Positions 37,601 through 60,265 of a stretch of 64,000 nt of DNA are shown in pieces (position 1 is the first letter of the stretch; every line of letters begins with the position of its first letter). This stretch comes from Bacteroidota bacterium (GTDB lineage Bacteria > Bacteroidota > Bacteroidia > Flavobacteriales_D > Crocinitomicaceae). Position numbers and translations under genes: made by a program. The stretch covers positions 22,523 to 86,522 of the forward strand of contig JAJRQK010000025.1 in assembly GCA_024280295.1 (NCBI GenBank), given 5' to 3'. The notes beneath the pieces are model-generated. The model saw only the letters and a list, made by a program, of their open reading frames with translations, was not told the origin of the DNA and did not search any database.

Positions 37601-37609
37601 TTGAAAGCG

Positions 37610-38548
37610 ATGAGAAAGACATTTACAGACCAAGGATTAGAAGAACGTTTTCAAAAAGACGGATACGTTGAAGTACCATTTTTGACCTCCAAAGAAGTTG
37701 AAATGCTGAAAACGTATTACTTTGATTCCTTAAATGAAAGCGGAGGAAGACTTGGGCCTGAAGACGAAAAACACCAATCGAATCAGGAAATCACTTATGA
37801 CTTCACGTTTATCGATAAGAATTCTGACTACAAGCAACAAGTGTTCGATATGATCACAAATGCCTTTATGAAACGAGTGGATGATTACCTATTTGATTAC
37901 AAACCGATCATTGCAAATTTTATCAGAAAGAAAGAGGACGGAGGAGAAGTTCCATTGCATCAAAATTGGGCATTTGCTGATGAACATAAATGTGCAACCG
38001 TCTCAATTTGGTGTCCTCTTGTGGACAGCAATAAAGAAAATGGAACACTCGAAGTTGTACCAGGAAGCCACAAACGCTATGGAGAAGTGCGTGGGCCGAT
38101 GATTAAATCGGAATTGGCTGGAATTTAATCTGAAATTATTGATAAGTATATGCAACCCGTTGAAACAAAAGCTGGAAATGCAGTTATCCTCGACGATAGT
38201 ATCGTTCATTATTCTTCCCCAAATCAAACAGATGGATTGCGTTTGGCGATTCAATTGATCCTAATTCCAACAGAAGAAAAATCAATTCATTTCCACATGG
38301 ACTTGGGTAAAGACAGGTCAAATGTTGAAGTTCTAGAAGTAGATAAAGACTTTTACATGAAGTTTAATCCGTGGAAAAAACCTTCAGAAGACGTGAAGAG
38401 AATAAACTCATTTAAGTACGAACCGTTTGATATGACAATCGAAGAATTCGGTGCTAAATTGAACAAACAGCGTTTCGACGAGAATAACCAGCCAGTTGAA
38501 GCACTATCTTGGTGGAAAAAAGTACGATCTAAATTGGCAGGAGCATGA
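37610..38548 (+). pseudogene. PhyH-family dioxygenase paralog 2, interrupted by an in-frame TAA (38126-38128) and with H-Q-N replacing H-x-D
   Basis: ORFs 37601-38128 and 38150-38548 are in the same frame. The junction reads ...KSELAGI*SEIIDKYMQPVETKAGNAVILDDSIVHYSSPN, collinear with the neighbouring paralogs. The metal motif is PLHQNWAFADE, with AAT at 37964-37966. Confidence 0.75.
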
Positions 38549-43389: not shown

Positions 43390-44273
43390 AAAAATAACCA
43401 CCTTTTCTTTGAAGGAATATGCTTTTTTAAAAGCGATTTGAATTCGCTGTTACTAATCGAATCAAGATTACCGTAATCAATAGTTGTTTTATTCTTCCCA
43501 ATCGGATTCGGATCGTCTTTCTGGTTATTGAAATCGTCGTAATGAATGAATAAATCATCAGGCACATCGTAGCGATTAACTTCCATTCCTCTATTGGTTT
43601 CTGCTCCATGAAAACACATCGTTTCCGCAGGAATTGGAATAATATTATTAATAATCGAAGTTCTTGATGAATCGGAAAGGTTCGGTGGCGAATAATGTAA
43701 AATTCGGCTATCGAAGATTAACGCTTCTCCTACTTTCACATCAATTGGCTTAAGGTGTTTCTTCGCCTCATCTATATTGCCTGAAAATTTTGGGGGAATT
43801 CCTGCTCCACGAATGTTTAACGGAAAACGGTGACTTCCTTTTACAGCATAGAGAGTTCCATTCTGAGTCGTACTATCAACTAAAGGAATCCATAAATTGT
43901 AAGCGCGAAATTTACGTTCATCAATAATACTCCAGTCTTGGTGCAAGTTTAAAACGGAGTTGTCACCGATACCTTTAACCAAAAAGAAATAAGAGAGCAT
44001 TCTATGATTGACGAGCATTGATTCTATACTTGGAGAAAGCATATCACGTATTCCGGCATGTACGTTTCGCTTAATATCAATGTCAGAAATTGAAACACTT
44101 CCATAAAAAGCAGATTCAAAATCTTGGGGATAACCATCCACAGTTGTCTCTAAAAATGAACGATAACTCTCGGAATCGAAATTCGGCAAGCTAATTTTCA
44201 CAATGCCATCTTCACGCAATGATTGATTCAAAGCGTCAGAATGAAATACATCGATCCAATTTTCGGTTTCCAT
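43386..44273 (-). CDS. PhyH-family Fe(II)/2OG dioxygenase, paralog 6
   Basis: It has LREDGIVKISL, NLHQDWSIIDE, GTLYAVKGSH and ILHYSPPN. The tail is SKKRWLFF. I prefer the ATG at 44273 to the TTG at 44282. Its 3' end overlaps the wzt stop by 4 bp. Confidence 0.8.
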   Translation of the reverse strand: METENWIDVFHSDALNQSLREDGIVKISLPNFDSESYRSFLETTVDGYPQDFESAFYGSVSISDIDIKRNVHAGIRDMLSPSIESMLVNHRMLSYFFLVKGIGDNSVLNLHQDWSIIDERKFRAYNLWIPLVDSTTQNGTLYAVKGSHRFPLNIRGAGIPPKFSGNIDEAKKHLKPIDVKVGEALIFDSRILHYSPPNLSDSSRTSIINNIIPIPAETMCFHGAETNRGMEVNRYDVPDDLFIHYDDFNNQKDDPNPIGKNKTTIDYGNLDSISNSEFKSLLKKHIPSKKRWLFF

Positions 44274-44278
44274 TTTTA

Positions 44279-46147
44279 TCAATTAAAGAATGATTTTATT
44301 TTTTGAAAAAAACCATCCGATTCCTCTTGAGTTTTAGCCGTTTTTTGTTGAGGTAAGTTCAGGCCGTCAAAGTGACTTTTGTTATATGGTTTTGGATCAA
44401 CATTAAGTGTTTGAATGTGATCAATTGTCGTTGGATAATCGAATCGATCTTCCCGCAATAAATAGTTAGGATACGATAAGAATTCTTCAGTTCGCTCTCC
44501 AAGAGGAGTTTCATTAATATGATAGAATCGAAACTCAGCATTTTTGTTTGTTATCGCGCAAGCAGATGCTGGACGAACAATGGTGCTATTATTATTTCGC
44601 GATCCATGAATGAAGCGATGGTCATAAATAAAGGCGTGACCAGCTTTCATTGGTTTTAATTCCAAATTATCCCACAGAAAATCTTCTACATCTCGCAATT
44701 GATTTATAACGTTGGGTCCACGATATGTTGGTTGAATCAAATGACTTTTTGGAAGTATTTCAATAGCACCGTTCTCGGCTGTTGTATCAACCAGTGGCAC
44801 CCAAATGTTGCATGATCTAAATCGACGTTCGTCCACCAAGTTCCAATCCCTATGTGGAGTAATGAGCCCTTTTCCGTTTGGAGGTTTTGCAACGAATGTC
44901 CCACCTAATATTTGAGTGTCAACGAAGAGTTCTTCAACGTGTTGAGCGTACATATTTGCAATCCAATCGTTCACGTTTTTTTTCAATTCAACATCTTCGG
45001 AATGACTGATTGCAAATATCCGTTCGGCACTATCTTTATTCTGATCGTTAAAATAGTTCAGTAATTTGGCCACTTCATCTTCATTGAAAAATGGAATGAT
45101 TGCATAACCTTCTTCGCACAATTCCCGCTCTAATTCATCGTCCTTGAAAATGCGTATCGCCTCATGCACGTCAGAATTGTATTCAGCGAACTTCGCTTGC
45201 TCGAGAGGGGTTGTTGTTATTGGTTCAGTGATGAAGTTTTGAACTGGTTCACCATCATGGAACAAAGAAACTTTCTCAATTCCAAGTAAGTCACAATCGT
45301 TTTCGAATTGCTCAGAAGTGATTTTTGGAGAAATAAATGCTCCTTCACCTATTTTTTTACCAATCGTAGGTCGTACAACACAATTGTGAAAGAAATTTGG
45401 ATAATTAATTAAAAAATCATCAGCTTGCTGGTAAAGTTCTATTGGGTCATCTTCTTTATCTTGGTAACTCAACTGGAAGGTCGCTTCTGCCGGAAGGATA
45501 CCACTCACAACCGCAATTCGATCTTTCCCTGATGTGTTTTTTCCAGAAGTATGAATAATCCGAGCATCGAACACGAGTGCTTGACCCGCCTTCAATGCAA
45601 TTGGTTTCAAGTATTTCTTGACTGTTTCTTTAATGTTTGAAAAGGGAGGAGAAAACGACACGCTTCTGAACGGAGAAAACATTTGATGCGTTTTTTCTAC
45701 AACCCATAAAGCACCATTAGTTTCATCAACGTCCTGCAAGGGAATCCATACGCTCAAAGAAGAATGTTTGAATTCATCTACTGCGCTGGAATCTTGGTGA
45801 ATTGAAAATGCGCTATCGTCACCAGATAATTTATTAATGAAAAAATTCAAACCGTTGTTGTACCCTGTAAAATGTTCTTCGAAAACAGAATTGAGTTCTG
45901 TCTGAAGTGCACTATGAATACGTTTACGATAGTCGGTATCTTGAGAATAAACAGAGTAGAACATTCCTCCTTTTTCATCTGTTAGTTGGTGCTCCTGATG
46001 GTAAATCGAAAGCATCTCCTCAATTGTTGAAGGTTCAATTAGATCCACTATTGCATAACCAAATTCCTCAACCTTCTGTTTGATTTCAGAATTTTTGAAA
46101 ATGGTAAATGGAGCGGGAGTCCATGAAAATGGATGGGAATAACTCAT
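44279..46147 (-). CDS. Tandem double PhyH-family Fe(II)/2OG dioxygenase (two complete domains in one polypeptide)
   Basis: Domain 1 has SIHQDSSAVDE, GALWVVEKTH and IIHTSGKN. Domain 2 has TPHRDWNLVDE, GAIEILPKSH and FIHGSRNN. The tail is GFFQKIKSFFN. The start at 46147 forms an ATGA overlap with the upstream stop. Confidence 0.8.
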   Translation of the reverse strand: MSYSHPFSWTPAPFTIFKNSEIKQKVEEFGYAIVDLIEPSTIEEMLSIYHQEHQLTDEKGGMFYSVYSQDTDYRKRIHSALQTELNSVFEEHFTGYNNGLNFFINKLSGDDSAFSIHQDSSAVDEFKHSSLSVWIPLQDVDETNGALWVVEKTHQMFSPFRSVSFSPPFSNIKETVKKYLKPIALKAGQALVFDARIIHTSGKNTSGKDRIAVVSGILPAEATFQLSYQDKEDDPIELYQQADDFLINYPNFFHNCVVRPTIGKKIGEGAFISPKITSEQFENDCDLLGIEKVSLFHDGEPVQNFITEPITTTPLEQAKFAEYNSDVHEAIRIFKDDELERELCEEGYAIIPFFNEDEVAKLLNYFNDQNKDSAERIFAISHSEDVELKKNVNDWIANMYAQHVEELFVDTQILGGTFVAKPPNGKGLITPHRDWNLVDERRFRSCNIWVPLVDTTAENGAIEILPKSHLIQPTYRGPNVINQLRDVEDFLWDNLELKPMKAGHAFIYDHRFIHGSRNNNSTIVRPASACAITNKNAEFRFYHINETPLGERTEEFLSYPNYLLREDRFDYPTTIDHIQTLNVDPKPYNKSHFDGLNLPQQKTAKTQEESDGFFQKIKSFFN

Positions 46148-47064
46148 GTTTTCAGGATCGTTTTTTTGATTTTTCTTAACCAATTAGTAGTGTTTTTAGC
46201 TTTCTGAATAGGCTTGATTACTTTGACTTCTCCCTGAACCAATCTAATTTGCTCGATTAAGTGATTCTCAGAAAGTGAATCAAATGTAAATGAATCAAAT
46301 TCTGCTTCACCTTCTGGTCGCGCTCCTCGTTTTGACGCATAATCAATATAGAAATCAGGTGTTGTTTCAAATCGTTCTAGTTGCTTTTCACCTTCACCAT
46401 TTTCCTTATAATGAAAATAGTGCTGAGCATTTTCTGGTGTGAGTGTTAAGCCCAAACTTACACGGGATTTCGGAGTTTTATTCAAGGTTGATCCGTGAAG
46501 TAAACCATGAAAAAAGAAGATTGCTTCACCAGCTTTCATCGGCACTGATTGCATATTTTTTTCAATAAGTTTCCAGTGATCTCGGTAAACGTCGGGAGTT
46601 CCAACGCCACGAATAGTTCGATTGAATTGATGACTTCCTTTTAAAACAATGATGTTTCCATTTTCATCATTTACATCTTCAAGCGGACACCACATGTTGA
46701 TACTCCAATCATTTCGCTCATCTACAAACGACCAATCCTGGTGCGGAGGAAGATGTCCTTCTTGAGTGGGAGGTTTCACAACAAATAATCCGCCAAATGC
46801 GTTGTATTTGCAAAATGTCGTATTCATTTTCTCCTGAAAGACGCGTATTATTTCATTTTCCACTTCCAGTTTATATTCCATTCGTGGATCGAAATAGGAC
46901 TTGTAAAATGCAGTTGGGTGCTCAGGGTGCCATTTCTTATATAATTCTTTAAACGCCGAAATTTCCTGTTTGTCGATAAATGGAAGTACAATGAAACCAT
47001 CGCGCACCATTTTTTTATCCAATTCTGGATTTAAAAATAGACCAACAGGTTTCTCATTTAACAT
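46144..47064 (-). CDS. PhyH-family Fe(II)/2OG dioxygenase, paralog 9
   Basis: It has MVRDGFIVLPF, PPHQDWSFVDE, GNIIVLKGSH and LLHGSTLN. The tail is NWLRKIKKTILKT. I prefer the ATG at 47064 to the TTG at 47076. Confidence 0.8.
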   Translation of the reverse strand: MLNEKPVGLFLNPELDKKMVRDGFIVLPFIDKQEISAFKELYKKWHPEHPTAFYKSYFDPRMEYKLEVENEIIRVFQEKMNTTFCKYNAFGGLFVVKPPTQEGHLPPHQDWSFVDERNDWSINMWCPLEDVNDENGNIIVLKGSHQFNRTIRGVGTPDVYRDHWKLIEKNMQSVPMKAGEAIFFFHGLLHGSTLNKTPKSRVSLGLTLTPENAQHYFHYKENGEGEKQLERFETTPDFYIDYASKRGARPEGEAEFDSFTFDSLSENHLIEQIRLVQGEVKVIKPIQKAKNTTNWLRKIKKTILKT

Positions 47065-47123
47065 AGAAGAGTTCAAATGTTTCAGGTTTAAAGATACGAC
47101 TTCCTATAGAACTAAATCAAGTT

Positions 47124-48046
47124 TCAAGTCCAGTACTTTAAGGTTTTTTCATCTTCCGTGAAAGCTAAAAATCCCCCAATAGTAATTCTGTTTTGAGTTC
47201 CTTCAACCAATTCTACTTTGTGCCAGATTGGACCTCCAGAAAAGATCAAGAGATCACCTGCATTCGGTTTCACTTTACTTCGCTTCAAGGGGCTGTTTGG
47301 GCTTGTGTCTAGACTTGTTCCGTCTGCTAAAAACACTTCATTATCATGACGAGCACTTTCTTTTGTTTGACCACCTTCCCAGAGTAAATCGAACAAGGTT
47401 AATTCCCCACCAATTTCAGCTGGATTTACCGTTAAAAAATAGCTGAGTTGATCTTTGACATTAACTTCTGTCTGTAAATGATCATAAAATACAGGAAACT
47501 CTTGTTGGAAGTAATTACCGCAGTGAACCATAATGAATCCTTGTCCTGGATAATTAACCCGAATAGAACCACTTGCATAACGCCCTTCTCCATCAAATCC
47601 TTTTGGAACATCTACTGATCGACCTCCTACTAACTTCTCTAAAATTGATTGAAGCCTTTTATTGAAGTCAAAGCCAGTAAGTTTTTTAAATGTTTCAGAC
47701 AACTGCTCGCATTCATTGAAATAGGCTTTGATGTTGTCGCGTTCTTGCGAAAAATCGTCATCTGGTTTACCAATTGTGAAAAATGCCGTGGATACGAATG
47801 TCCAACACCTGTAGGAATCGTTATTTCTGGATCAATCGCTTCGATTGCCGTTTTCATTTTCGATATTTCTTCTTTCGAGCAGACATTTCGAATGATAATT
47901 CCAGTATATTTTTTGTCGTAAATGTCTTTCACGGCATCAGAGAAATTGTCCAATTCGGAAACATCAATGTATTTCCAATTGTATAGGTCATTTTGGATGT
48001 TGGAGACGGAAATTTTCTTTTTGAAAAAATTAAATTGTTTAAACAT
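47124..48046 (-). pseudogene. P4H-like 2OG-Fe(II) oxygenase-fold gene split by a -1 frameshift; the H-x-D position reads H-C-G
   Basis: ORFs 47639-48046 and 47124-47702 overlap in different frames. The downstream frame is open up to 47831. Restoring one base in the A5 run at 47779-47783 (T5 on the coding strand) joins ...GVGHSYPRHF to FTIGKPDDDFSQERDNIKAY.... The fold motifs are VNYPGQGFIMVHCGN, LSYFLTVNPAEIGGELTLF, KPNAGDLLIFSGGPIWHKV and NRITIGGF. Confidence 0.65.
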
Positions 48047-48051: not shown

Positions 48052-48582
48052 TTAAAAATCAAAGTTAATTATACAGCCAATTAGTGGCGTTTCTGAAATT
48101 TGAATTTCTTTATTTCCCTTCCATTCCTGAATCGCTAAATCTACATAATTTATGGTTGGTTCATATTTATGTTTTCCAAGTTTGATGTAATAATCATCCA
48201 TTTTTCCAGAATAGATGCACTTTTCACCATCATAGAGCATGATTTGTGGGGTAACTGTCGCTCCGTGTTTCTTGGCAATGTTCAAATTAGTATCGCAAAT
48301 CACCTCAAAAACAATGTCAAATTCGCTCAATGTTTCATCCAGCTTAGTTTGATCCAATTGCGGATCAGATACTATACCAATAACCTTAAGACTTGATGGA
48401 TATCGCTCCGAAATCCGTTGCATCTTAGGGAGGTTATTTCTTGATGCAGGGCAATCAGAAATAAAGAAAAAATAGCATGTCAACTCACCTGAATTTTTCT
48501 GAACCTTTGCGATCGTTTCATTCTTCGAGTCAGAACATCCGAATGTGAGTGCAAAAAGCGATAAAAGTAGTATGATTTTCAT
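48052..48582 (-). CDS. Thioredoxin-fold lipoprotein with a monothiol C-P-A-S motif
   Basis: 176 aa with lipobox LTFGCS. It resembles TlpA/AhpC-type proteins (CYFFFISDCPASRNNLP ... VTPQIMLYD). Its start overlaps the upstream stop by 1 nt. Confidence 0.55.
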   Translation of the reverse strand: MKIILLLSLFALTFGCSDSKNETIAKVQKNSGELTCYFFFISDCPASRNNLPKMQRISERYPSSLKVIGIVSDPQLDQTKLDETLSEFDIVFEVICDTNLNIAKKHGATVTPQIMLYDGEKCIYSGKMDDYYIKLGKHKYEPTINYVDLAIQEWKGNKEIQISETPLIGCIINFDF

Positions 48583-49949
48583 TATTCAATAAGGTGACCT
48601 AGTTTGAGATTTTCATCGTTTTCATCGTACTTCATGTAGGTTAAACAGAGTACGAACATTTCATCTTTTGCTCCGTGCCCAAATCCGACATCACGAATGG
48701 GTGAATTTGGTTGGTACTGATTTTTTGAAGTGTTGTCATAAACAATATTCATAAAGATAATTGATCCTTTTGGGATTGTTTTTGCAGTTTCAAACATGTA
48801 TTGCCCTTGAAAGTAATAATCCCAATCGTCTATTCTGAGTAGTTTGATTTTTTTGTTTTCGGGTGTCAGCGCATAGCATTCCACCATTCGACCTAAGAAA
48901 TGAAAATGAGGAAAAAGTCCTATTAGACTGATCGTCGAGTCAATTTTTTGTTCTATTGTTATAACAGTTACTTCATTGGCGGGAATAGAGAAATCCAGAT
49001 CACTTTGCGTAAGAAATTGAACCTCTTTTTTAACCTCTTCGATATAATGAAGACTGATCGAGATATCACCTGAATGATTTTTATATTCTGGCGCATAATG
49101 TGCTTGAAGAACAATACAACTTCCCTTTGGGATTTTTAGTCCTAAATCACTATCGAATAAAAAGGGTTGTTTTCCTCTGCTCCAAACGCCAATTTGTGTT
49201 CCAATCACTTCTGATTCGATGCAGTCCCAAGTCGAAGGATTATTATCTCCTTTTTTTGCAACGAACACAGTAACATGATGCAATATTTCGGGATTATCTG
49301 TTATTACCTCAAATCCAGAAATGTATCGGTCTTTGGTTGATTCAAGGTCTAATGAAAAGCATTGATAAGTATCTTTATTGCTGCATAATACATGACGTTT
49401 ATCATACCTTAGAATTGTATCGGGAATTGTTTTTCGAGAATAGTTCAAATCATCAGCTTTGTTACTCAGTGTTGCTCCTTGATCTATCCATTCAATCAAT
49501 TTAGCACGTTGATAATCATCTATGTCTGGCGCGTTATAGAAGGTTGAATAAGTGGGGTCAGGAGTCCATGGAGGCATAAGCTTAGTATTCAAAGCTTCTT
49601 TGATTACCTGAGCGCGTTTCTTTATGTCGAAATAGGACGTGAGTGCAAATGGGGCATTTCCTTTTTCACGATGACATAGGATGCAATTTTTCTGAAAAAT
49701 AGGAGCCACGTCTTTGTAATCTAACTCCAGCGTATCAAGATTAAAAGAAGACTTCTGATCTAAAACAGGATGATCCCTTTTCTGTAAATACGCATGAAGA
49801 ATTGAGTCTCTTGCAATTTCATTGATTGAGTTTGCATGAGAAATAGCTCCAGCTGTTTTTTTTGGGGACGTGCAAGATGCTATGAACAGAATAAGGAAAA
49901 ACACACTTGTCAGGTACCGAAACAGATTTGAAATGGGAGTTATTTTCAT
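48582..49949 (-). CDS. Lipoprotein combining a cytochrome c (CxxCH) module with a PHM/DBH-like copper type II monooxygenase domain
   Basis: 455 aa with lipobox FIASC and heme motif CILCH (49671-49685). Copper-site motifs are collinear with peptidylglycine monooxygenase: YQCFSL...ILHHVTVF, VLQAHYAP, LFPHFHFLGR, KDEMFVLCLTYM. Confidence 0.7.
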   Translation of the reverse strand: MKITPISNLFRYLTSVFFLILFIASCTSPKKTAGAISHANSINEIARDSILHAYLQKRDHPVLDQKSSFNLDTLELDYKDVAPIFQKNCILCHREKGNAPFALTSYFDIKKRAQVIKEALNTKLMPPWTPDPTYSTFYNAPDIDDYQRAKLIEWIDQGATLSNKADDLNYSRKTIPDTILRYDKRHVLCSNKDTYQCFSLDLESTKDRYISGFEVITDNPEILHHVTVFVAKKGDNNPSTWDCIESEVIGTQIGVWSRGKQPFLFDSDLGLKIPKGSCIVLQAHYAPEYKNHSGDISISLHYIEEVKKEVQFLTQSDLDFSIPANEVTVITIEQKIDSTISLIGLFPHFHFLGRMVECYALTPENKKIKLLRIDDWDYYFQGQYMFETAKTIPKGSIIFMNIVYDNTSKNQYQPNSPIRDVGFGHGAKDEMFVLCLTYMKYDENDENLKLGHLIE

Positions 49950-50024: not shown

Positions 50025-51089
50025 TCACTCCAATTTATTTAGATAAGACCCTAATTTTTCCGCAAACATTTTGTGAGCTTTTGAGCTCGGGTGTTGATCA
50101 AGTGGGGCATTCGTAAATCCTTTTTGAGATAAATCAATGTAAATATCAATGGTATAAATTGATTTATCTTCACAATGCTTGATTAGTCGACGAGTGATTT
50201 CGTCGTTCATCATTGTTGAGATCACAAGTTCAACTCCGTTGTTTTTGCATATTTCATAAATGCGGTCGATCATGGCGAGGGTCACTTTTTCATCTTCTGC
50301 CGCATCAACAGTTTGTTCATCCCATGTGTTTTGAAGTGCATTCATGCTTACTGAATATTCAATTAATGGAAAGGTTGAACTAATTTCATGAATTGAAATG
50401 TGGTCGAATTTTAACTCATTCTCCTCAAACCATCCATAAGGATAGGAGCATTTGAATCTCGCTATCCCGATGTCAGCACGTTTTGTGATTTCATATCCCA
50501 TTCGTAATTTTTGTCGATAAGAAGAATTCAAGGTATTGCGCTCATTGTGAAATGATAAATAATTTAGAATAATGACCTCCGGTTTCTGGGAAGATGTTAA
50601 TTCCTGTTCAAGATTGACAAGAATTTGTGCTTGACCATAACCGGGAACCGCACGATTTTCAATATTCAAATTGGGGAAATCTGCTTGAAGTAAAAACGGA
50701 TAAACTTCGGAATCATTCACGCCAGTTCCGTATGTGAATGAGCAACCATAAAATGCAACAGTGGTTTGTTCCTTAGAGCGATTCTCTAAATTACCGCATG
50801 TTCTTTGTCCATTTTTAAGATGAGTCGCCGTGTATTTTAACTTTTTATTGATTGTTACTTCATAGATGCCTGGATTCATGCGAATACCAAGTTCTTTGTC
50901 TGGCGAAAGGTGACGGTTAGGAGCAGAAGTCATTGAGAATTCAGGGAGTTCAAATACACCAAAACCAAATATTCGCAGACCGACTTCCAAAAGAACGATT
51001 GTGATAATCACCAGTATGAAACCGCGTTTTACGAATGCCATCAACTTTTTACTCATTAATGAGGTGTTTTTGCTAAAGATACGAAACAC
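50025..51089 (-). CDS. TM-anchored SGNH/GDSL-like hydrolase or acyltransferase
   Basis: 354 aa with N-terminal TM GFILVIITIVLLEVGL. Block I is degenerate (FYGCSFTYGTG) and block V is LDQHPSSKAHKMFA. It is a paralog of the SGNH domains at 55308-56882 and 59200-60265. Confidence 0.6.
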   Translation of the reverse strand: MFRIFSKNTSLMSKKLMAFVKRGFILVIITIVLLEVGLRIFGFGVFELPEFSMTSAPNRHLSPDKELGIRMNPGIYEVTINKKLKYTATHLKNGQRTCGNLENRSKEQTTVAFYGCSFTYGTGVNDSEVYPFLLQADFPNLNIENRAVPGYGQAQILVNLEQELTSSQKPEVIILNYLSFHNERNTLNSSYRQKLRMGYEITKRADIGIARFKCSYPYGWFEENELKFDHISIHEISSTFPLIEYSVSMNALQNTWDEQTVDAAEDEKVTLAMIDRIYEICKNNGVELVISTMMNDEITRRLIKHCEDKSIYTIDIYIDLSQKGFTNAPLDQHPSSKAHKMFAEKLGSYLNKLE

Positions 51090-51135: not shown

Positions 51136-52410
51136 ATGGCATTTTGGCGAAAAAAGAAAGAAATTACAGTAAATAACAACGGTCAATTTAAGGATGACGG
51201 TGTTTTTTGTGCAATGCCTTGGGTCCATTTACATGTCACGCAAAACGGGAATATTACTCCATGCTGTCAGGCTCCATGGGGAGATGAAGCAAAACTAGGA
51301 GATATCAATACATCAACGATTCAAGAAATTTGGAAGGGAAAACCATTTGAAGATTTCAGAAAACAAATGCTCAAGGGAAAACCTGCTCCAGCATGCACGA
51401 GATGTTACGAAAAAGAAGAGTTGGGATGGATAAGTCTTCGCGAAATTACCAACGACAAATATGAGAATGAGATCAATGAATTGATTTTAAAAGAATTTCA
51501 TTCTTCCAGTTATGAGACACCCGTCTATTTTGATATTCGTTTTTCGAATGTCTGCAACTTAAAATGCCGCATCTGTAATTTTTCGTCCAGTTCGAGTTGG
51601 TACAATGATGATCTCGCTTTGGGGAATATCAAACCAGAATCGCCAGCTCTTACGACGTCAATTATCGACGAAGAAAAATTCTTTAATGACTTCAAGGAGC
51701 AAATTGGATCAATCAAGGAAATTTATTTTGCTGGTGGCGAGCCTTTGATGATGGATCAACATTATCGGATTTTGGAATTTTTAATCGAAACAGGAAATAC
51801 GAAGTGCAAATTGTTCTACAACACTAACCTATCACGTTTGACCTTCAAACAATTTAACGTTCTAGAACTTTGGAAGCAATTTGATAGCGTTAATCTTGCA
51901 GTGAGTCTTGATGGTATTGGTGAGCGACTAGAGTACCAACGAAAAAATGCCAAATGGGAACAAATGGCATCCAACTTCGAAGCGATTAAGCAGGATGCAC
52001 CCAATGTCGATTTAATGATTAGTCCTACCATTAGCGTTTTCAATATTCTATCGATTACTGAAATGCACAAAACGCTTTTTGAAAAAGGCTACGTTAGAGT
52101 TGAAGATGTGGTTCCAACCTTGCTCGTTTACCCGATGGAATTTAACATAAGGAGTTTAACGAAGGAATTAAAGGGTATTGCTGAAGGACGAATTCTTGAT
52201 CATCTGATTTGGCTAGAAAGTAAAATGGTCGAAGATCGGAAGAAAATGGACTATGTTTTGCGCCAATACCGCAATATTATTGCGTACTTGAATAATGATG
52301 GTGATGAAAAGGCGCGATTAAATTTCCCGCAGAAAATTGCTCAATTGGATGCGTTGCGAGATGAAGATTTCATCGGAGTTTTTCCAGAGTTGAAATCCAT
52401 GATTCACTAG
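51136..52410 (+). CDS. Radical SAM enzyme with an N-terminal Cys-rich (twitch/SPASM-like) domain
   Basis: The N-terminus FCAMPWVHLHVTQNGNITPCC...ACTRC is followed by the CX3CX2C motif in DIRFSNVCNLKCRIC and by YFAGGEPLM. I prefer the ATG at 51136, because the track's 51001 start overlaps the divergent gene. Confidence 0.75.
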   Translation: MAFWRKKKEITVNNNGQFKDDGVFCAMPWVHLHVTQNGNITPCCQAPWGDEAKLGDINTSTIQEIWKGKPFEDFRKQMLKGKPAPACTRCYEKEELGWISLREITNDKYENEINELILKEFHSSSYETPVYFDIRFSNVCNLKCRICNFSSSSSWYNDDLALGNIKPESPALTTSIIDEEKFFNDFKEQIGSIKEIYFAGGEPLMMDQHYRILEFLIETGNTKCKLFYNTNLSRLTFKQFNVLELWKQFDSVNLAVSLDGIGERLEYQRKNAKWEQMASNFEAIKQDAPNVDLMISPTISVFNILSITEMHKTLFEKGYVRVEDVVPTLLVYPMEFNIRSLTKELKGIAEGRILDHLIWLESKMVEDRKKMDYVLRQYRNIIAYLNNDGDEKARLNFPQKIAQLDALRDEDFIGVFPELKSMIH

Positions 52411-53778
52411 CTAGTCCGGGAGCGGGGTTACAAATGACTTAAACAAGTACAAGGCGTGTTCACGATCTATTTGCGGCAAAGACTGTACAACGGTTTTATA
52501 GTCCATTTCAATGATTCGCTGAGTAGCAGTTTCGTGCAAATTGTTCTCGGATGCCACACTCACGATATAATTCAACTTCGCCTCAATGTCTTCAATAGTA
52601 GCTTGTTGCTCTTTTGGGACGATATCAGAATTTTCGTTTATGTATAATTTCAAACCAGCGAAGTACGTTTCCAAATCAACAATTTTTCCTGTTTGATTAA
52701 TTAGTTTCTCTCGTTCCAAAGCTTCTTTTTGCCACAATTCAAAATGACTAACAACTTGGAGGAAACTTAGTTTATTTTCCTTTTGAATAGTAGTGTTAGA
52801 TTGAAGATTTGATTTTGACAGAAATGCAACAATTTTAGAAATTTCGGTAGATGAAAGCGAATTAATGGAACACGATTTTGGATGAAAAACGGTATTGAAA
52901 AAGATGTTACAATCAAGTTCATTGGCAAATTTCACAACATCAGGAAGTTCTTTCCAATTTTGAATCATCGGACAGTATGAAATATGAAAATGGGTTCCTT
53001 TTTCTCTGCAATATTCTCTAAAGAAATGGATGTTCGACAGCACTTTTTTCCACTCGCCATTTTTGCGAATAATTCGATAGTTTTCTTCGATAATTGAATC
53101 AATTGAAACGGCAATATCAAAGTTCATCGAATTGATTATATGCTTAATTCTATTTGTTAAGATAGTACCGTTAGTTTGAATCGAAATTCGAATTTTTGGA
53201 TTGATCGCGACCATCCGCTCCCAAATATTGAGGTAAATAGGTACTAGAAATGGTTCCCCTCCAAGGAAATGTGAATTCTCGAGATAGGGAATAAATTCTT
53301 CCAACTGATCAACGAAATCACTGTCATAAGCTGATTTTATTGGAGGTAGTTTTTCTCTGTTTTTTCGAATGGATGAAGAAAATTCTCCGCGGCACATAAG
53401 GCATTCAAGATTACATTCATTGGACAGCTCAAAATCCATTTTAGAAGGGAAACCTGTTCGAAGAACGGGAAGAGAATCAAAGTTTTTAGCTGGAAGTGCT
53501 TTGAAATTTTCGGCAACAATAAGTTCCTCACAACCCATACATCCAAGAGAGAAATCATTTTGCGCTAGTCGCTGAGTGATTTCCTTTCTTTTGGCACTAT
53601 TCCATATTTCCCGAATAGTAAGATCAGGATATTTTCCAACAACATGAATTTTATTAAAGCAACACACGGATGTGTTCCCTCGAAATCCAAAGTACAAACT
53701 CTTGATTGGAGCCCAGCAGACCATAGTTCGAGCTTCAGGAACGCGCTTTTCGTTATATTTTATTAGTTCATCTCCCAT
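52411..53778 (-). CDS. Radical SAM enzyme with an N-terminal Cys-rich domain (divergent paralog)
   Basis: 455 aa with VCWAPIKSLYFGFRGNTSVCC...LGCMGC, then ELSNECNLECLMCRG (CX3CX2C) and HFLGGEPFL. Confidence 0.75.
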   Translation of the reverse strand: MGDELIKYNEKRVPEARTMVCWAPIKSLYFGFRGNTSVCCFNKIHVVGKYPDLTIREIWNSAKRKEITQRLAQNDFSLGCMGCEELIVAENFKALPAKNFDSLPVLRTGFPSKMDFELSNECNLECLMCRGEFSSSIRKNREKLPPIKSAYDSDFVDQLEEFIPYLENSHFLGGEPFLVPIYLNIWERMVAINPKIRISIQTNGTILTNRIKHIINSMNFDIAVSIDSIIEENYRIIRKNGEWKKVLSNIHFFREYCREKGTHFHISYCPMIQNWKELPDVVKFANELDCNIFFNTVFHPKSCSINSLSSTEISKIVAFLSKSNLQSNTTIQKENKLSFLQVVSHFELWQKEALEREKLINQTGKIVDLETYFAGLKLYINENSDIVPKEQQATIEDIEAKLNYIVSVASENNLHETATQRIIEMDYKTVVQSLPQIDREHALYLFKSFVTPLPD

Positions 53779-53779
53779 T

Positions 53780-55165
53780 TCAAGTATTCTCTCCTATTGA
53801 TTTGGCGAAATCCCACAACGGGCTCAATTCTGGTAATACTGTCCTCGTCGATTCTGTTCGTAAGTGATCTAATTTATCCGTAAAGGCTATAAATTCTGGA
53901 ATTAAGTGCTGGTCAATTTTACTGTCCATGTATGTTATGCAATTCCTAAACTCGTTCAGTTGCATGTCAATTTTTGGATGCCCAGTGGTATTATTCATCC
54001 CAAGGTTATCGAGTAAGCCTTCAAATTGCTCGAGTTCAGCTTTAGTTGGTGCTTGAGGTGGATGATCTTTCGCGTACTCAATCACCCAAGTGATGTGTTG
54101 TTCGAGTTTTTCGCGAATGGTTTCTCGTTCGCCTTCTGGAAAAATTCGAATGCTTAAATAATTCGGACTCCTCAAAGTATGCGGCATGAACTCATCAATA
54201 TTAATTAGTCCAGAAAGCACCCATTCTTTGTGGAAAGCACCGATATTGTTAATGTTCATCACATTGATGGTCGGTGTTACTAAAAAATGAACATGTGGAC
54301 AGACTTCGAGCATTCGCTTTCTTTCCGAAACAGTAATGTCCCATGATTGTCCGCTACGTTGGAGTTCTCCTCGTTTACCTGTATCGTCGAGACTCGCATG
54401 GACATTTACATTTTTAAAATGTGTCCATAACTCAAAAATGTCTCTTCCTTTGTAGATTGTTTGAGAAAAATTGGTCGCGTACCTGAGCTTTATGTCGGTT
54501 TTTCCATGCTCAAGAAGAAGGTCAAGTATTGCCCAATGTTCTTCCATCAACAAGGGTTCTCCTCCAGCAAAATAGATCTCTTCGAGATCATCGAACACAA
54601 AGAGCAATTGCTCCAGTAATTCATCAAAATTCTTTGGACCATGTTGAATTTTTGTTTCGTGGGAAAGTGACCCCATTTCTTTTGCGTCTTTGTACCATTG
54701 TGAACTTGAATGATGTCCACATATTCGACATTTGAAATTACATAAGTTTGAAATACGAATGTCCCAAAAGATAGGCTTGGCCTTTTCTGAGAATCCATTT
54801 CGTTTGGTGTCGAGTGCCCAGTCCAATTTGTCTGCATATAGCGCATTGGTCATTTTCCGGGTGCTTTTCAAACCATTTCGTTCACTTTCGTAACACAATT
54901 TACAGCGTTCATCATGTTGATCTTTTAATAAGGTCTTTCGAAATTGCCTCATTTCGTTGCCGTTCCATATCTCCTTGATTGATTGCTTGTTCACATCTCC
55001 TAATGCACCTTTTTTATCCCAAGGAGTCAAGCAACAAGGAACAACCGAGCCATATTGAGAAACAAAAAGATGCACCCATGGTTTCATGCAAAAAGCTTGG
55101 CTTTCAGCAACTGATTCAGCATCAGTTATCTTTCGATTGGAAAATAAGCTGAACGGTTTTGACAT
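53780..55165 (-). CDS. Radical SAM enzyme with an N-terminal Cys-rich domain (close paralog of 51136-52410)
   Basis: 461 aa with FCMKPWVHLFVSQYGSVVPCC...RCKLC, then DIRISNLCNFKCRICGH and YFAGGEPLLM. Confidence 0.75.
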   Translation of the reverse strand: MSKPFSLFSNRKITDAESVAESQAFCMKPWVHLFVSQYGSVVPCCLTPWDKKGALGDVNKQSIKEIWNGNEMRQFRKTLLKDQHDERCKLCYESERNGLKSTRKMTNALYADKLDWALDTKRNGFSEKAKPIFWDIRISNLCNFKCRICGHHSSSQWYKDAKEMGSLSHETKIQHGPKNFDELLEQLLFVFDDLEEIYFAGGEPLLMEEHWAILDLLLEHGKTDIKLRYATNFSQTIYKGRDIFELWTHFKNVNVHASLDDTGKRGELQRSGQSWDITVSERKRMLEVCPHVHFLVTPTINVMNINNIGAFHKEWVLSGLINIDEFMPHTLRSPNYLSIRIFPEGERETIREKLEQHITWVIEYAKDHPPQAPTKAELEQFEGLLDNLGMNNTTGHPKIDMQLNEFRNCITYMDSKIDQHLIPEFIAFTDKLDHLRTESTRTVLPELSPLWDFAKSIGENT

Positions 55166-55307: not shown

Positions 55308-56882
55308 GTGTTCTATTCTTTGCTTTTGTTTATCTTAATGCTAATGATTTGGCTGTCACGTCGCTATTATGCACAAAAGCATCTTGGAGTTCAATACACG
55401 TTTACTTGGAAATCAGGATATTACTTTGTGATAGGGCTGATGTTAATCTTATCGTTGCCGAAATTTTCAGTTCTATTTATTGTTTTATTTCCACTTTTTT
55501 TATTGACAAGGCACATTCGTGTAATTCGTACGATTAAAGCATCGACATACAATGTAAACATAGCATCAGAATATAAACAGCAATTAAAGACATATCTCGC
55601 GTTGAGATCGAAACGAATGATGTTTTTCCAAAACAATGGACATGTGCTCTTCATTCTTCTCGTTGTTACTGAATTTGGACTTACCCTTGCCAGTTTCGTT
55701 CCTGGTGTGATTTCATACGATGATCATTTTTCAGTTGTTGATGAACTTTTGGTATTTGAGGGGTATAGTGCGGATGAACGAGGAATCATGCATCTTGATA
55801 ATAAGGCAAGAAACTACGCAAGAAAGTATATCAAAGAGAATAACCTAGGGAATAATTTGCTTTTTCAAGCAAAATTAAATTTTGAACACAAACACTATAC
55901 CCCTTATCGCGTCGGTAGAGATTTTCTAGAAATAGCTCAAGGGGAAGTTCAAACTAATTTCCACTTTTTCCTAAAAAAATTGAAAGCCGAAATTAGCCTA
56001 TCTCTCGGTGAAAAAGCGATACTAAATTATATGAGTTCGCCAATTAATTCGGATGGTTTTAGAAGTATTGAGTTTGAATACATACTCTCGAATAAACGGA
56101 AAGTCTTTTTACTGGGAGATTCATTTACTTGGGGATCTGGAGTAGAAAATTTAAGTTCAAGTTTTGCCGATGAATTGACTTCTCAAGGTTTTCTCGTGTA
56201 TAATTCAGGAATTGTAGGAACAAATCTTCCTCAGTATGTTGAAATAGTTCGCAAATACATTTTAACAGTAAAACCAGATGTAGTGGTGCTCAATTTATTT
56301 TTGGGAAATGATATTGTTGAACACAGGATAGACTTAAAACCATTTCATCCACAGTATTACAACACAAACGCTGGTACTCTAATGTGTGCACCTCATGGTA
56401 TGTATGCTAATAGCGCCGAAGATGCCTATGCTAGAATAATTGATCAAACGACGATTCCAAAAAAAATGTCTTGGCTGAATTATCTATCTAGTCAAACAAG
56501 AATTTCGACCTTGCTTTGGAGTGCCTTTGCAGAGATGGGAATTATTGGAAATGTGGCATCCAAAGAATCGGTGGATTATTGGGACTTTGTGAATCAGTCA
56601 AAAGTTGGTTATAAAGTGAATGCTGAGGATCTTGAAGACATTGAACGCATTTGCAAAAAGAATCAGTGTGAATTGATAGTTTCCATCATTTCTGAACGAG
56701 ATAATTTAGACTTATCTGATCTCATAGTAGATAAAATGGTGGGTAACTTCCCGTATGTAAGAATCGCTAATTTAACAAAGGAAGATTATGCACCTGATCA
56801 TCACCTTAATGAATCAGGTAATCGCAAGTATGCTAGATTTCTTCAGTTGCAAATCGAGAAAGAAGCCCTCGACAATCGTTAG
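55308..56882 (+). CDS. Polytopic membrane protein with a C-terminal SGNH/GDSL domain
   Basis: 524 aa with a GTG start and 3-4 N-terminal TM segments. SGNH blocks: VFLLGDSFTWGSG, YNSGIVGTN, LFLGNDIV, PDHHLNESGNRKYA. Confidence 0.65.
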   Translation: MFYSLLLFILMLMIWLSRRYYAQKHLGVQYTFTWKSGYYFVIGLMLILSLPKFSVLFIVLFPLFLLTRHIRVIRTIKASTYNVNIASEYKQQLKTYLALRSKRMMFFQNNGHVLFILLVVTEFGLTLASFVPGVISYDDHFSVVDELLVFEGYSADERGIMHLDNKARNYARKYIKENNLGNNLLFQAKLNFEHKHYTPYRVGRDFLEIAQGEVQTNFHFFLKKLKAEISLSLGEKAILNYMSSPINSDGFRSIEFEYILSNKRKVFLLGDSFTWGSGVENLSSSFADELTSQGFLVYNSGIVGTNLPQYVEIVRKYILTVKPDVVVLNLFLGNDIVEHRIDLKPFHPQYYNTNAGTLMCAPHGMYANSAEDAYARIIDQTTIPKKMSWLNYLSSQTRISTLLWSAFAEMGIIGNVASKESVDYWDFVNQSKVGYKVNAEDLEDIERICKKNQCELIVSIISERDNLDLSDLIVDKMVGNFPYVRIANLTKEDYAPDHHLNESGNRKYARFLQLQIEKEALDNR

Positions 56883-57055: not shown

Positions 57056-60000
57056 TTGAAACAATTCTTACTGCTAATGATTTCCTTTTTTCAATTCTTT
57101 ACTCAAAAATTGCGACTCAGTAATCCGTGGCGGTACAAAGTTCCACTACTTATTTCGTTTTGTTATTTCTTACTCCTCACAGGTAATGTCCATCCCTATA
57201 TTGCCTCAATGTCATTCTTTGCAGCAATCGGAACAACGATTGGTTTTATGGGCTTCGGATATTTGACAAATGATCTTGCCGACCGAAAAAAAGATGCGCT
57301 TGCTGGAAAAGGAAATGGAACTGCGAAATTATCCTCAGCATCAATTTTACTTTTAGTCCTCACCTTTTTGGCTATTGCAATTTTGCCTTGGATTTATCTC
57401 CCAATGGATCGAGTTTCGGTTGTTTGCATTATTACAGAACTGGTCTTATTCGTGTTGTATGCATTCCCTCCTTTTCGCCTTAAGGAAAGAGGTTTTTTAG
57501 GAGTGATTACGGATTCTCTCTATGCACATGTCGTCCCTGGGTTTCTTGCTTCTTGGACATTTTATTTAGTTGGTAACGAACACTATAAAAACTTCTTTTA
57601 TTTCGCAATTGCACTTTCAGTTTGGCAATTATTCTCAGGAATTCGAAACATAATTTCTCATCACTATAAGGATTACGAAAACGATCAAACGAGTGGAACC
57701 AGAACCTTTGCTACACAGATTGGAAAAGAGAAAGTGTATAAGCTAATCACTCATTTTTTCATTCCGTTGGAGATTATCTCTGCGTTGGGGTTTCTTGTCG
57801 TTATTCAATTTGAAATTGATTTCCTCTTCATTCCAGTGATCATTTTCCCCTTTATTGCTTGGTCGAAGTATCGTAATGGGAGATCGGAAACATCAGCCAA
57901 ACATTTTACTAATACCTTTTTAGATCGATTTTATATTCACTGGTTTCCTTACATCGTTCTTTTCGCTCTAGTATTCGGAATCTACGATTTTTGGTGGATT
58001 GTACTTTTTCACGTATTGATCTTTCATCCATTAACTGGGAGAATTTCACGCCATATTTTTGCGAAGAAAGCGGATGTAACTTCTGAAGAAGTCATCCCAA
58101 ACAAGATTGCGATTCTATCAACAAATCGAAATCAATATTCGGAGACGTTTATTCAATCACACATTCGTTTACTTTCAAATGCAATCATTTATTCGGATGG
58201 ATACTTTCCAACATCAGTCTCTACGAACCGAGGGGAAACGTGGAATAAATTAGAATTTTCAGATAGTCCTAAATCAGATTTAGTCCAGTCATGGAAAGAC
58301 AACAATGTGAAAGTTGTTTTAGCTGAATACGGACCTGCTGGTGTTGAACTAATAAAGGCATGTCAGAAGGCGAATATTCCTTTGGTTGTTCATTTTCATG
58401 GCTTTGATGCGTATCGGGATGATGTTCTGAAATCTTACAAAGAGCGCTACAAAGAGTTGTTTCAAATTGCTTCTAAGATTATCATTGTTTCCAATGATAT
58501 GAAGTCTCAGTTACTCGCATTAGGTTGCCCAAAAGAGAAATTGGAACAAATAACCTACGGCGTTGATGCGGAGCTATTCTCTCCTCCATATCAGAATGAT
58601 AAACGAAATGGTTTCATTGCCTGTGGACGCTTTGTCCCAAAAAAATCTCCGTTAACAACAATTCGAGCTTTCGCAAAAATTGTTGAGTTACATCCGAATG
58701 CAAAATTGACGTTTATTGGTGATGGCGAGTTGCTTGAAGAAGCGATTTCACTGAGTAAAGAGCTTAAAATTGAAGGGAACATTGACTTCAAAGGAGTTTT
58801 GAGTCCTGCAGAGGTTGCCGATGAGTTTAAAAAGCACGCAATTTTTGTTCAGCATTCAGTCCGCACAACTCAAAACGATTCAGAAGGAACACCACTTTCG
58901 TTATTAGAAGCTGCCGCATCGGGATTGGCAATTGTGGCTACAAATCACGGTGGAATTTCTGATGTCATTGTTGATGGTGAATCTGGTTTCCTTGTTGAGG
59001 AAGGGGATGTTGTCGAAATGACTAAGCGCATGCTTCAAGTTTTTGAGGATGATAAACTTAAAAAACAACTCGGATCGAAAGCAAGGGAAACGGTTTTGAA
59101 AAATTACCATTTGGTAGGTTATATATCTTCATTGGAGTCGTGTTTAAATCAAGCTGAAACCCCACCAAAGAAAGAAAGTAAATTGACTATTTGGAAGAAT
59201 CGATTAATTGTCTTTTTAGTCTTGTTTTTAGTTGCGGAAATCGCTCTCAGAATGGTTGGCTATAAAGCGGGAGTCATCGAAGATTTCTATTTTCATCGTG
59301 GAGAAGTGCAATACGATTCCTTGCTTTACGCCGATGAAGTTGGTATTACGCACATAGTTGACGGAGTAGAACTGATTGTTGATGGTGAAATAAATTCCGA
59401 AGGATTTTTGAGCTCGGTAGAATTTACCGCTGAATCAATGGACTCAATTCGAGAATCAGGGAAGAAAATCATTATGCTAATCGGTGATTCATATGCGCAG
59501 GGATGTTGTGCTGATAGTTACAATTACTCGTTTGCGAATCTTATTAACCAATCGGATGATTACGAAGTTCTCAATTTTGGAATTCCAGGAGCAGATCCAG
59601 TTCAATACCGTCTAATTGTTGAGAAATATGCACCAATTCTAAAGCCAGATTTGATTCTAGTAACAGTTTATGGGGGAAATGACATCTTGGAATATGATCG
59701 AACTGCGAAGCCATTTATTCCGATTGCTTATCCAATCAAGAATGGTCCTTGGCTCAATTCAGAAGGTCCAATTTATTTAACAAAGCAAGGAACTTACTTC
59801 AAGGATTTCAATGAAGCTAAGGCGCATTACTTCGAATATTTCTCTCTCTGGAGTGATGAATCTTCGTTCTTTGAGAAAACGATTCGTTACAGTGTAATTC
59901 TATCTCGCCCTTATATGAAATGGAAAACAAGTAAGCAATACAATAAAATCAAGTATCAAATGCCTGATAAATTAGATCACATGCCTTACTCAAAGGAAAA

Positions 60001-60265
60001 TCTTATTTCACTGTCGGCTTTTGCCTCAAATCTTAAAATCCCAATTCAATATACATTGATTCCATCTCCGTCTGATGTTATATCCAATCTAAACCTTCGC
60101 AAGAAATACAATTTTGTTTTTGGAGAAATAAGCTATGGAGTATCTGATAAATTGGTGATTGAAGATTACGATGGAGACGCGGACGCGAATCACTTTAACA
60201 ATCAAGGACATCAGAAATATGCAATATATCTGACAACTTTAATTGATGCAAAACTTTCTGAATGA
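57056..60265 (+). CDS. Triple-domain fusion: UbiA-family prenyltransferase (polytopic) - GT4 glycosyltransferase - TM helix - SGNH domain
   Basis: 1069 aa. The UbiA Asp-rich motifs are NDLADRKKD (57269-57295) and YKDYENDQTSG. The GT4 E-x7-E region is EGTPLSLLEAAASGLAIVATNHGGISDVIVDGESGFLVEE. The TM helix is LIVFLVLFLVAEIALRMVGY. SGNH blocks are MLIGDSYAQG, NFGIPGAD, VYGGNDIL and DANHFNNQGHQKYA. The TTG start is uncertain; ATG at 57077 is an alternative. Confidence 0.75.
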   Translation: MKQFLLLMISFFQFFTQKLRLSNPWRYKVPLLISFCYFLLLTGNVHPYIASMSFFAAIGTTIGFMGFGYLTNDLADRKKDALAGKGNGTAKLSSASILLLVLTFLAIAILPWIYLPMDRVSVVCIITELVLFVLYAFPPFRLKERGFLGVITDSLYAHVVPGFLASWTFYLVGNEHYKNFFYFAIALSVWQLFSGIRNIISHHYKDYENDQTSGTRTFATQIGKEKVYKLITHFFIPLEIISALGFLVVIQFEIDFLFIPVIIFPFIAWSKYRNGRSETSAKHFTNTFLDRFYIHWFPYIVLFALVFGIYDFWWIVLFHVLIFHPLTGRISRHIFAKKADVTSEEVIPNKIAILSTNRNQYSETFIQSHIRLLSNAIIYSDGYFPTSVSTNRGETWNKLEFSDSPKSDLVQSWKDNNVKVVLAEYGPAGVELIKACQKANIPLVVHFHGFDAYRDDVLKSYKERYKELFQIASKIIIVSNDMKSQLLALGCPKEKLEQITYGVDAELFSPPYQNDKRNGFIACGRFVPKKSPLTTIRAFAKIVELHPNAKLTFIGDGELLEEAISLSKELKIEGNIDFKGVLSPAEVADEFKKHAIFVQHSVRTTQNDSEGTPLSLLEAAASGLAIVATNHGGISDVIVDGESGFLVEEGDVVEMTKRMLQVFEDDKLKKQLGSKARETVLKNYHLVGYISSLESCLNQAETPPKKESKLTIWKNRLIVFLVLFLVAEIALRMVGYKAGVIEDFYFHRGEVQYDSLLYADEVGITHIVDGVELIVDGEINSEGFLSSVEFTAESMDSIRESGKKIIMLIGDSYAQGCCADSYNYSFANLINQSDDYEVLNFGIPGADPVQYRLIVEKYAPILKPDLILVTVYGGNDILEYDRTAKPFIPIAYPIKNGPWLNSEGPIYLTKQGTYFKDFNEAKAHYFEYFSLWSDESSFFEKTIRYSVILSRPYMKWKTSKQYNKIKYQMPDKLDHMPYSKENLISLSAFASNLKIPIQYTLIPSPSDVISNLNLRKKYNFVFGEISYGVSDKLVIEDYDGDADANHFNNQGHQKYAIYLTTLIDAKLSE

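Follow-up and report, generated by a model that had tools for sequence, protein, structure and literature searches.

The 64,000 nt window analysed here (contig JAJRQK010000025.1 of GenBank assembly GCA_024280295.1, positions 22,523 to 86,522 of the forward strand) stems from a Bacteroidota bacterium of the Crocinitomicaceae and contains three adjacent genes, called A, B and C in the following, for radical S-adenosylmethionine (SAM) proteins in which a cysteine-rich auxiliary domain precedes the catalytic core. Judged by their profile scores, A and C are clear members of the NCBIfam family NF033640 (N_Twi_rSAM, "twitch domain-containing radical SAM protein"), and B is a relative that remains below the threshold of the family. 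The trio lies in what its gene content identifies as an ABC-transporter-type sugar locus, and we give an about even chance to the view that the three enzymes tailor a sugar-bearing intermediate of an exported surface glycan or glycolipid. All positions refer to the window.

An N-terminal twitch domain in three radical SAM proteins

Gene A (51136..52410, plus strand) encodes a protein of 424 aa, gene B (52411..53778, minus strand) a protein of 455 aa, and gene C (53780..55165, minus strand) a protein of 461 aa. Homologues of A with 84-88% identity are also 424 aa long, so translation of A likely begins at the ATG at 51136 and not at the GTG at 51001. A and B are convergent with a gap of 0 bp. 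B and C share the minus strand, with C 1 bp upstream, and the two genes are therefore probably co-transcribed.

In all three proteins about 20 residues are followed by C-x12-G-x4-CC, about 40 residues later by C-x2-C, and then by the CX3CX2C motif of the core and GGEP. As derived from the translated motifs, A has C25-x12-G-x4-C43C44 and C87TRC90 (nt 51208-51405, plus strand), the core motif C140NLKCRIC147 (nt 51553-51576) and GGEP at residue 200. In B the cysteines C21, C39C40 and C80MGC83 (nt 53530-53718, minus strand) precede C122NLECLMC129 (nt 53392-53415), and in C the cysteines C26, C44C45 and C88KLC91 (nt 54893-55090, minus strand) precede C142NFKCRIC149 (nt 54719-54742). Across the three proteins Pfam assigned SPASM (PF13186) to residues ~21-91 and Radical_SAM (PF04055) to residues ~118-295 (25-91 and 135-286 in A, 21-83 and 118-284 in B). 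Translations and Pfam domain order agree with a preliminary description of this DNA, which had placed the Cys-rich module ahead of the core in all three proteins.

NF033640 has a curated cut-off of 170 bits for the whole-protein score of its hidden Markov model (HMM). A (388.8 bits) and C (375.2 bits) exceed this value more than twofold; they align to the profile end to end (positions 1-398) and share its domain order and cysteine pattern, and homologues carry the family name at NCBI. B reaches 154.5 bits, just under the cut-off; it is divergent with the same architecture and, unlike the family, has a C-terminal extension of ~100 aa. The HMM search for an N-terminal-twitch subfamily that the preliminary description had suggested thus leads to a family, itself a sequence definition only, that is curated for exactly this layout. 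The N-terminal placement of the auxiliary domain, which had been contrasted with that in canonical enzymes, is already catalogued and hence no discovery; A and C are new members of the family and B is a near relative.

A comparison of the family profile with all PDB sequences gave BtrN as the best match (E = 4e-11). Residues 16-89 of the query aligned with residues 162-236 of BtrN, which form its twitch domain, and C25, C43, C87 and C90 were aligned on the cluster cysteines of BtrN. This supports the earlier assumption that the Cys-rich module is genuinely an auxiliary-cluster domain of the twitch type. The same four cysteines (A numbering) are conserved to 92-99% among 105 distinct genomic members and to 99-100% among 350 distinct viral members, so that a lack of conservation, which had been considered as a reason to give up this assumption, was not found. 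The second cysteine of the CC pair, C44, is conserved in only 62% of the 350 viral members. CX3CX2C and GGE are 100% conserved in the family, the arginines R75, R102, R269 and R408 are invariant in the genomic and viral alignments, and no cysteine downstream of the core is conserved among the 105 genomic and 350 viral members. Since only four cysteines of the module are conserved and none after the core, the sequences argue for a four-cysteine, one-cluster twitch domain and not for a two-cluster SPASM domain. The latter was rejected, as it needs seven or eight conserved cysteines (CX9-15GX4C ... CX2CX5CX3C ... C) and the proteins have only five in the N-terminal region, four of them invariant.

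The relation to BtrN is confined to this domain. The twitch domain is C-terminal in BtrN (PDB 4M7S/4M7T) and N-terminal in the trio, the cores are not specifically related (the alignment score of the BtrN core is below zero), and the trio proteins exceed BtrN in length by ~170 aa and end in an additional helical domain. To our knowledge, the auxiliary domain is C-terminal to the core in all solved twitch and SPASM structures; in A, B and C it precedes the core. An AlphaFold2 model of A, calculated from an 85-sequence alignment (pLDDT 92.9, pTM 0.89), shows a β-hairpin (strands 31-34/39-41) followed by helices, then a core of alternating strands and helices across residues 131-295, and a helical C-terminal domain at residues ~343-423. 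The CX3CX2C and GGE motifs together with the partial TIM barrel of the model place A in the radical SAM superfamily. The top Foldseek matches of the model in the PDB (TM 0.3-0.37) included SkfB, BlsE, viperin, anSME, CteB and SuiB. Predicted structures of phage proteins matched the model end to end (TMq up to 0.85), and proteins of KVP40 and phi-pp2 matched its whole fold (TMq 0.55-0.63).

The identity between A and C is only 34%, and B shares 22-26% with each of them, so that the former designation of two of the genes as close paralogs was overstated. Each of the three has its own orthologues in other genomes (47-93% identity; 49-86% for B and 47-93% for C). Low mutual identity together with separate orthologues elsewhere indicates that A, B and C represent three old, anciently diverged orthologous groups and not recent duplicates.

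The family is very large. Searching 1.84 billion representative proteins with the family profile retrieved 5,720 clusters (counted at 50% identity) with E <= 1e-30, among them tandem fusions of two or three copies. One-genome-per-species contigs contained 391 relatives, most of them from Bacteroidota, and the best match (87%) is from a Fluviicola metagenome-assembled genome (MAG). Carriers outside the Bacteroidota are Paenibacillus, Synechococcus, Eubacterium, Legionellales, Verrucomicrobiota and Bdellovibrionota-type MAGs. In the literature searched (N-terminal twitch/SPASM, NF033640, clusters of PhyH, radical SAM and UbiA genes) we found no description of the family, its function or its substrate; the only mention, at RadicalSAM.org, is of conserved cysteines N-terminal to the barrel in some members of the SPASM/twitch megacluster.

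The sugar locus and its recurrence in other genomes

Pfam identified Wzm/Wzt, GT2, GT4, DegT, epimerase and carbamoyltransferase genes around the trio, and their presence bears out the earlier assignment to a glycan-type locus. We called and clustered the open reading frames (ORFs) of 79 related genome loci that hold the closest relatives. A cassette, defined by at least two markers among PhyH, UbiA, GT4, WelO5, methyltransferase and Wzm, is shared by 29 of these 79 loci and comprises PhyH, UbiA, GT4, SGNH-like, Wzm/Wzt, methyltransferase and carbamoyltransferase genes, often with 3-9 PhyH genes; a Saprospiraceae contig carries virtually the entire set. Loci with the cassette are found in Flavobacteriales, Saprospiraceae and Chitinophagales, and also in MAGs of Lysobacterales and Henriciella. 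Its occurrence in Chitinophagales and in the Lysobacterales and Henriciella MAGs marks the cassette as a mobile unit. The Henriciella pelagia MAG (L007) and the Lysobacterales MAG (L010) carry much of the Bacteroidota-type cassette, with a fuller set including UbiA, Wzt and Wzm in L007. The identity of their radical SAM proteins with A is 63% in L007 and 42% in L010. These cassettes suggest either transfer between phyla or mis-binning.

The preliminary description had regarded oxygen-sensitive radical SAM chemistry beside O2-dependent oxygenases as an unusual combination. The pairing of radical SAM and O2-dependent dioxygenase genes recurs in 25 genome loci besides the window and, to judge from gene content, is a recurrent conserved design and not an oddity of one genome. 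Immediate neighbours of the radical SAM genes are most often other members of the family (18 loci), SGNH-like proteins (16 loci), which are the commonest neighbours outside the radical SAM proteins, and PhyH proteins (10 loci). Over the 79 loci the median gap to the neighbouring genes is 18 bp, and 89% of the gaps are below 150 bp. Arrays of 4-7 paralogues occur elsewhere, some with other radical SAM genes (B12-binding in two loci), asparagine synthase or carbamoyltransferase. Loci of Paenibacillus, Synechococcus, Verrucomicrobiota and Chryseobacterium encode glycosyltransferases close to family members; the Paenibacillus operon comprises genes for two acyl carrier proteins (ACPs), ketosynthases, a short-chain dehydrogenase/reductase (SDR) and a GT2.

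In the window an upstream block of sugar genes (29871..35726) starts with a DegT aminotransferase (29871-31001, minus strand), followed by a FabH-like gene (31320), a GT2 (32333), a GNAT gene (33244), a gene at 33780 (minus) left unassigned by the Pfam scan, and a second GT2 (34743). The Wzm-like ABC-2 permease (35726..36541, plus; ABC2_membrane) is followed by an array of PhyH-family 2-oxoglutarate (2OG)/Fe(II) dioxygenases (36551..41197, plus) with genes at 36551, 38545, 39435 and 40334 and a split copy at 37601-38548. A CMAS-type SAM-dependent methyltransferase gene (41204..42175, plus; CMAS/Methyltransf_11), for which all NCBIfam matches are far under the cut-offs, lies next to the gene of a Wzt-like ABC ATPase (42178..43389, plus; ABC_tran, with a weak, below-cut-off Wzt_C match, E = 1.3e-5), homologues of which are present in 22 loci. 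A second PhyH array (43386..47076, minus) consists of genes at 43386 and 46144 and a double-domain gene at 44279-46183 and weakly matches TIGR04324, "sporadic carbohydrate cluster 2OG-Fe(II) oxygenase". It is followed by a split gene for a WelO5-like 2OG oxygenase (47124..48046, minus; ORFs 47639-48046 and 47124-47702; WelO5 E = 1e-50 for the 3' part), both ORFs of which fall into a single cluster with a median length of 309 aa. The WelO5-like ORFs are in overlapping frames and the PhyH halves span 37601-38128 and 38150-38548; the split genes represent frameshifts, pseudogenes or sequencing errors. With 8 intact PhyH domains, the split PhyH and the split WelO5-like gene, the earlier count of ten O2-dependent oxygenase domains is confirmed as about ten of the 2OG type, to which a gene for a copper type II monooxygenase-like protein is added (48582..49949, minus; Cu2_monooxygen/Cu2_monoox_C). 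This homologue of PHM/DBH-like enzymes has a cytochrome c-like CxxCH segment and an N-terminal lipoprotein-like signal and adjoins an AhpC/TSA-like gene; copper monooxygenase homologues recur in two related loci (L013 and L058).

The trio itself is flanked by two genes for SGNH/GDSL-like proteins. One encodes a membrane-anchored protein (50025..51089, minus; weak match to LA_2486 SGNH, E = 5e-7), is divergent from A and belongs to a cluster present in 12 loci. The other (55308..56882, plus) is divergent from C; its product has N-terminal membrane segments and a Lipase_GDSL_2 match below the cut-off (E = 4.9e-4), and clusters with the SGNH part of a 1,069-aa UbiA-GT4-SGNH-like fusion encoded further downstream (57056..60265, plus; UbiA 33-284, Glycos_transf_1 513-678, Lipase_GDSL_2 809-884). 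UbiA and GT4 are separate adjacent genes in the Saprospiraceae cassette (L080). Genes for a NodU/CmcH-type carbamoyltransferase (60841..62706, plus; Carbam_trans_N/C, E = 6e-94 and 3e-73) and an NAD-dependent sugar epimerase/dehydratase (62753..63730, plus; Epimerase, E = 9e-48), which is present in 15 related loci, complete the locus.

Among the genome loci, several Vicingaceae contigs (L081-L085, ~10001-12255) carry the same orphan radical SAM protein gene convergent with an adenosine deaminase-family gene. A link of this neighbour to the salvage of 5'-deoxyadenosine is speculation.

Family members in phage cassettes

A scan of IMG/VR revealed at least 597 stretches with matches to the family, of which 80 loci were kept for analysis. 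These hold 384 family members, about 5 per locus, in one co-directional, syntenic cassette together with a carbamoyltransferase (41 of the 80 loci, cluster c4) and SGNH-like proteins (20 of the 80). The viral cassette extends over ~17 kb or more (loci L086-L244, e.g., L097:1-17210 and L131:1-17197). Its radical SAM proteins are 31-38% identical to A, and the PhyH, UbiA and Wzt partners of the bacterial genes are absent, as are recognisable lipid genes. One partner family is GT8-like, its profile matching glycogenin (E = 1.4e-4). At least six conserved families of the cassette (c1, c2, c5, c6, c7 and c9) gave no Pfam match, c1, c2, c5, c6 and c7 gave no match in PHROGs, and the profiles of c1 and c2 gave none in the PDB. 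By eye only, c2 may have a GT10-like TEK motif and c10 an amidinotransferase-like C-terminus.

With the first cassette protein as query, three kinds of genes were found upstream: two or three for tail-fibre-like proteins, one for a conserved protein of 228 aa, and one whose product of at least 1,000 aa matches a "virion structural protein" PHROG. A protein of ~320 aa rich in Ser, Thr, Gly and Asn is also encoded directly ahead of the cassette, beside the tail-fibre-like genes. Because of these virion structural and tail-fibre-like genes, the gene content identifies the contigs as those of real, uncultured tailed phages. In pelagimyophages, radical SAM cassettes are part of a "host recognition cluster" beside structural/tail-fibre and glycosyltransferase-like genes (Zaragoza-Solas et al. 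2020, PMC7029224). The viral relatives found here likewise lie downstream of genes for a large virion structural protein and tail fibres, together with glycosyltransferase-like genes, and we infer that they occupy the same kind of region.

Among cultured phages in GenBank only distant relatives were found, in Ralstonia phage RsoM2USA and in Vibrio phages K566 and K567 of the KVP40 group. The trio is comparable to the radical SAM arrays of these T4-like vibriophages, as K566 (L245, OZ196521.1 157844-172662) has three tandem copies among hypothetical genes. About 5 kb downstream of these copies is a gene for a PagP-like lipid A acyltransferase. A 42.7-kb contig assigned to "Legionellales bacterium SP228" (L061, PBLX01000002.1) carries a viral-type cassette with six radical SAM paralogues, a B12-binding radical SAM protein and a carbamoyltransferase, and also homologues of the viral families c1, c3, c5 and c8. 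Possibly this is phage DNA that was binned into a bacterial MAG.

Proposed substrate and chemistry of the trio enzymes

BtrN, the prototype of the twitch enzymes, is the 2-deoxy-scyllo-inosamine dehydrogenase of butirosin biosynthesis, and its substrate is an amino-sugar-like cyclitol, which fits the sugar-pathway context of the trio. We infer cluster binding, substrate class and reaction type from such relationships as follows. The enzymes would act in the cytoplasm on an intermediate of the surface glycan or glycolipid that the ABC-transporter-type locus around them produces. A sugar linked to a nucleotide or to polyprenyl phosphate is the probable candidate. The invariance of the four arginines may point to an anionic substrate with phosphate or carboxylate groups, such as a nucleoside diphosphate sugar or a polyprenyl-diphosphate-linked glycan. 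A 5'-deoxyadenosyl radical would take a hydrogen from a sugar carbon, and the auxiliary [4Fe-4S] cluster, predicted to be fully ligated by the four invariant twitch cysteines, may relay electrons, as its counterpart in BtrN does. Overall, an alcohol would be oxidised to a ketone, or a related epimerisation or dehydration would take place; both the relay and the net oxidation are proposed because the auxiliary cluster appears to be BtrN-like and fully ligated by cysteines. The presence of three orthologous groups in adjacent genes, and of at least five members in phages, suggests that the paralogues act at different positions or in successive steps.

Several observations weigh against sugar tailoring as the role of the trio. 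The literature searched yielded no characterised member of the family, and no solved structure in the PDB resembled the whole model of A, the best match (TM-score 0.37) covering the core only. The substrates of most characterised SPASM/twitch enzymes are peptides or proteins, and SkfB, CteB, SuiB and anSME, which are enzymes of this kind, are among the top Foldseek matches. Genes of lipid type are also present, namely UbiA, the CMAS-type methyltransferase and FabH in the window and those for ACPs, ketosynthases and the SDR in Paenibacillus. Finally, at about half of the 79 closest genome loci the radical SAM gene is an orphan with unrelated genes around it, and we found no common context among these loci: the de-duplicated neighbours within two genes of the non-cassette loci comprise 129 Pfam families, none of them recurrent. 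Because about half of the closest relatives are in unrelated contexts, the link to glycans, which is strong for the A/B/C lineage, cannot be extended to the whole family. Of the former proposal of sugar- or lipid-modifying enzymes, the setting stands, with a glycan-type locus in the window and the cassette in 29 of 79 loci; the oxidation or epimerisation chemistry attached to it is conjecture.

The genes of lipid type could mean that the trio modifies a glycolipid in its prenyl or acyl portion, for instance by forming a C-C bond at, or oxidising, an unactivated chain carbon. Tes/GDGT-MAS are radical SAM lipid enzymes that act on such carbons, and the cores of the trio show weak matches to them (NCBIfam E = 5.6e-6; PDB 7TOL, E = 1.2e-4). 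These matches are restricted to the generic core, however, and do not surpass those to viperin, NirJ or MoaA. The many PhyH genes (phytanoyl-CoA dioxygenase family) are no evidence for an isoprenoid substrate, since enzymes of this family use many types of substrates, and the viral cassettes combine the radical SAM genes with a GT8-like protein and a carbamoyltransferase in the absence of recognisable lipid genes. We therefore consider lipid tailoring unlikely. For nucleotide or nucleoside chemistry of the viperin, MoaA or BlsE type, unrelated to glycans and yielding, for instance, a modified nucleotide for defence or counter-defence or a modification of phage DNA, one could refer to the core, which resembles MoaA and prokaryotic viperin (the latter with E = 5e-8 for A and 4e-10 for B), to viperin and BlsE among the best structural matches, and to the strong expansion of the family in phages. 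All scores are far under the cut-offs of those families, however, the phage genes lie in the structural/tail-fibre region with glycosyltransferase-like genes and not in replication modules, and the bacterial genes lie inside exporter-linked sugar cassettes; such a role appears very improbable.

The trio proteins might also be maturases of proteins encoded nearby, i.e., of SGNH-like proteins in bacteria or of Ser/Thr/Gly-rich structural or fibre proteins in phages. Enzymes such as anSME and the sactisynthases modify residues of peptides or proteins, and the SPASM maturases anSMEcpe, CteB, SuiB and SkfB have in common with the trio the radical SAM core and the first half of the SPASM motif. The frequency of SGNH-like proteins as immediate neighbours and the position of the phage cassette directly after tail-fibre-like genes and the ~320-aa protein would be in agreement with this. 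The structural matches to these maturases are weak, however, and limited to the shared core; the family of the trio has 4-5 conserved auxiliary cysteines and so one cluster instead of two, and the domain order is reversed. SGNH-like neighbours occur in only 20 of the 80 viral cassettes and are absent at the orphan loci. Neither Pfam nor NCBIfam detected an RRE/PqqD-like domain in A, B or C, and a gene for a peptide substrate is missing from their surroundings, as the preliminary description had noted for short precursor ORFs. In the intergenic regions on either side of the trio (46 and 142 bp) the only ORFs encode 24-28 aa, overlap gene C and are not credible as small genes, and the gaps of 0 and 1 bp within the trio leave no space for one. 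A linkage to precursors of ribosomally synthesised and post-translationally modified peptides, which would have spoken against a glycan role, was rejected for the lack of an RRE domain, a precursor ORF and intergenic space, with the median neighbour gap of 18 bp. A maturase function in general is quite unlikely.

Tailoring of a sugar-bearing intermediate is thus the role to which we assign even chances for the trio. A broader and more tentative possibility is that the N-terminal-twitch radical SAM enzymes are a dedicated glycan-tailoring family, which would produce keto, epimerised, deoxy or C-C-linked sugars on surface polysaccharides and would be used by bacteria and T4-like phages in their contest over host recognition, with the phages remodelling the host surface or glycosylating the virion. 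The value of the locus lies in the family behind it, which is very large and for which neither a characterised member nor a solved structure was found. Two settings point in the same direction, the exporter-linked, oxygenase-rich sugar cassette across bacterial phyla and the arrays in the tail-fibre region of phages. If a role in the tailoring of surface glycans is true, it would add radical chemistry to polysaccharide biosynthesis and would provide a handle on how phages and their hosts diversify recognition structures.

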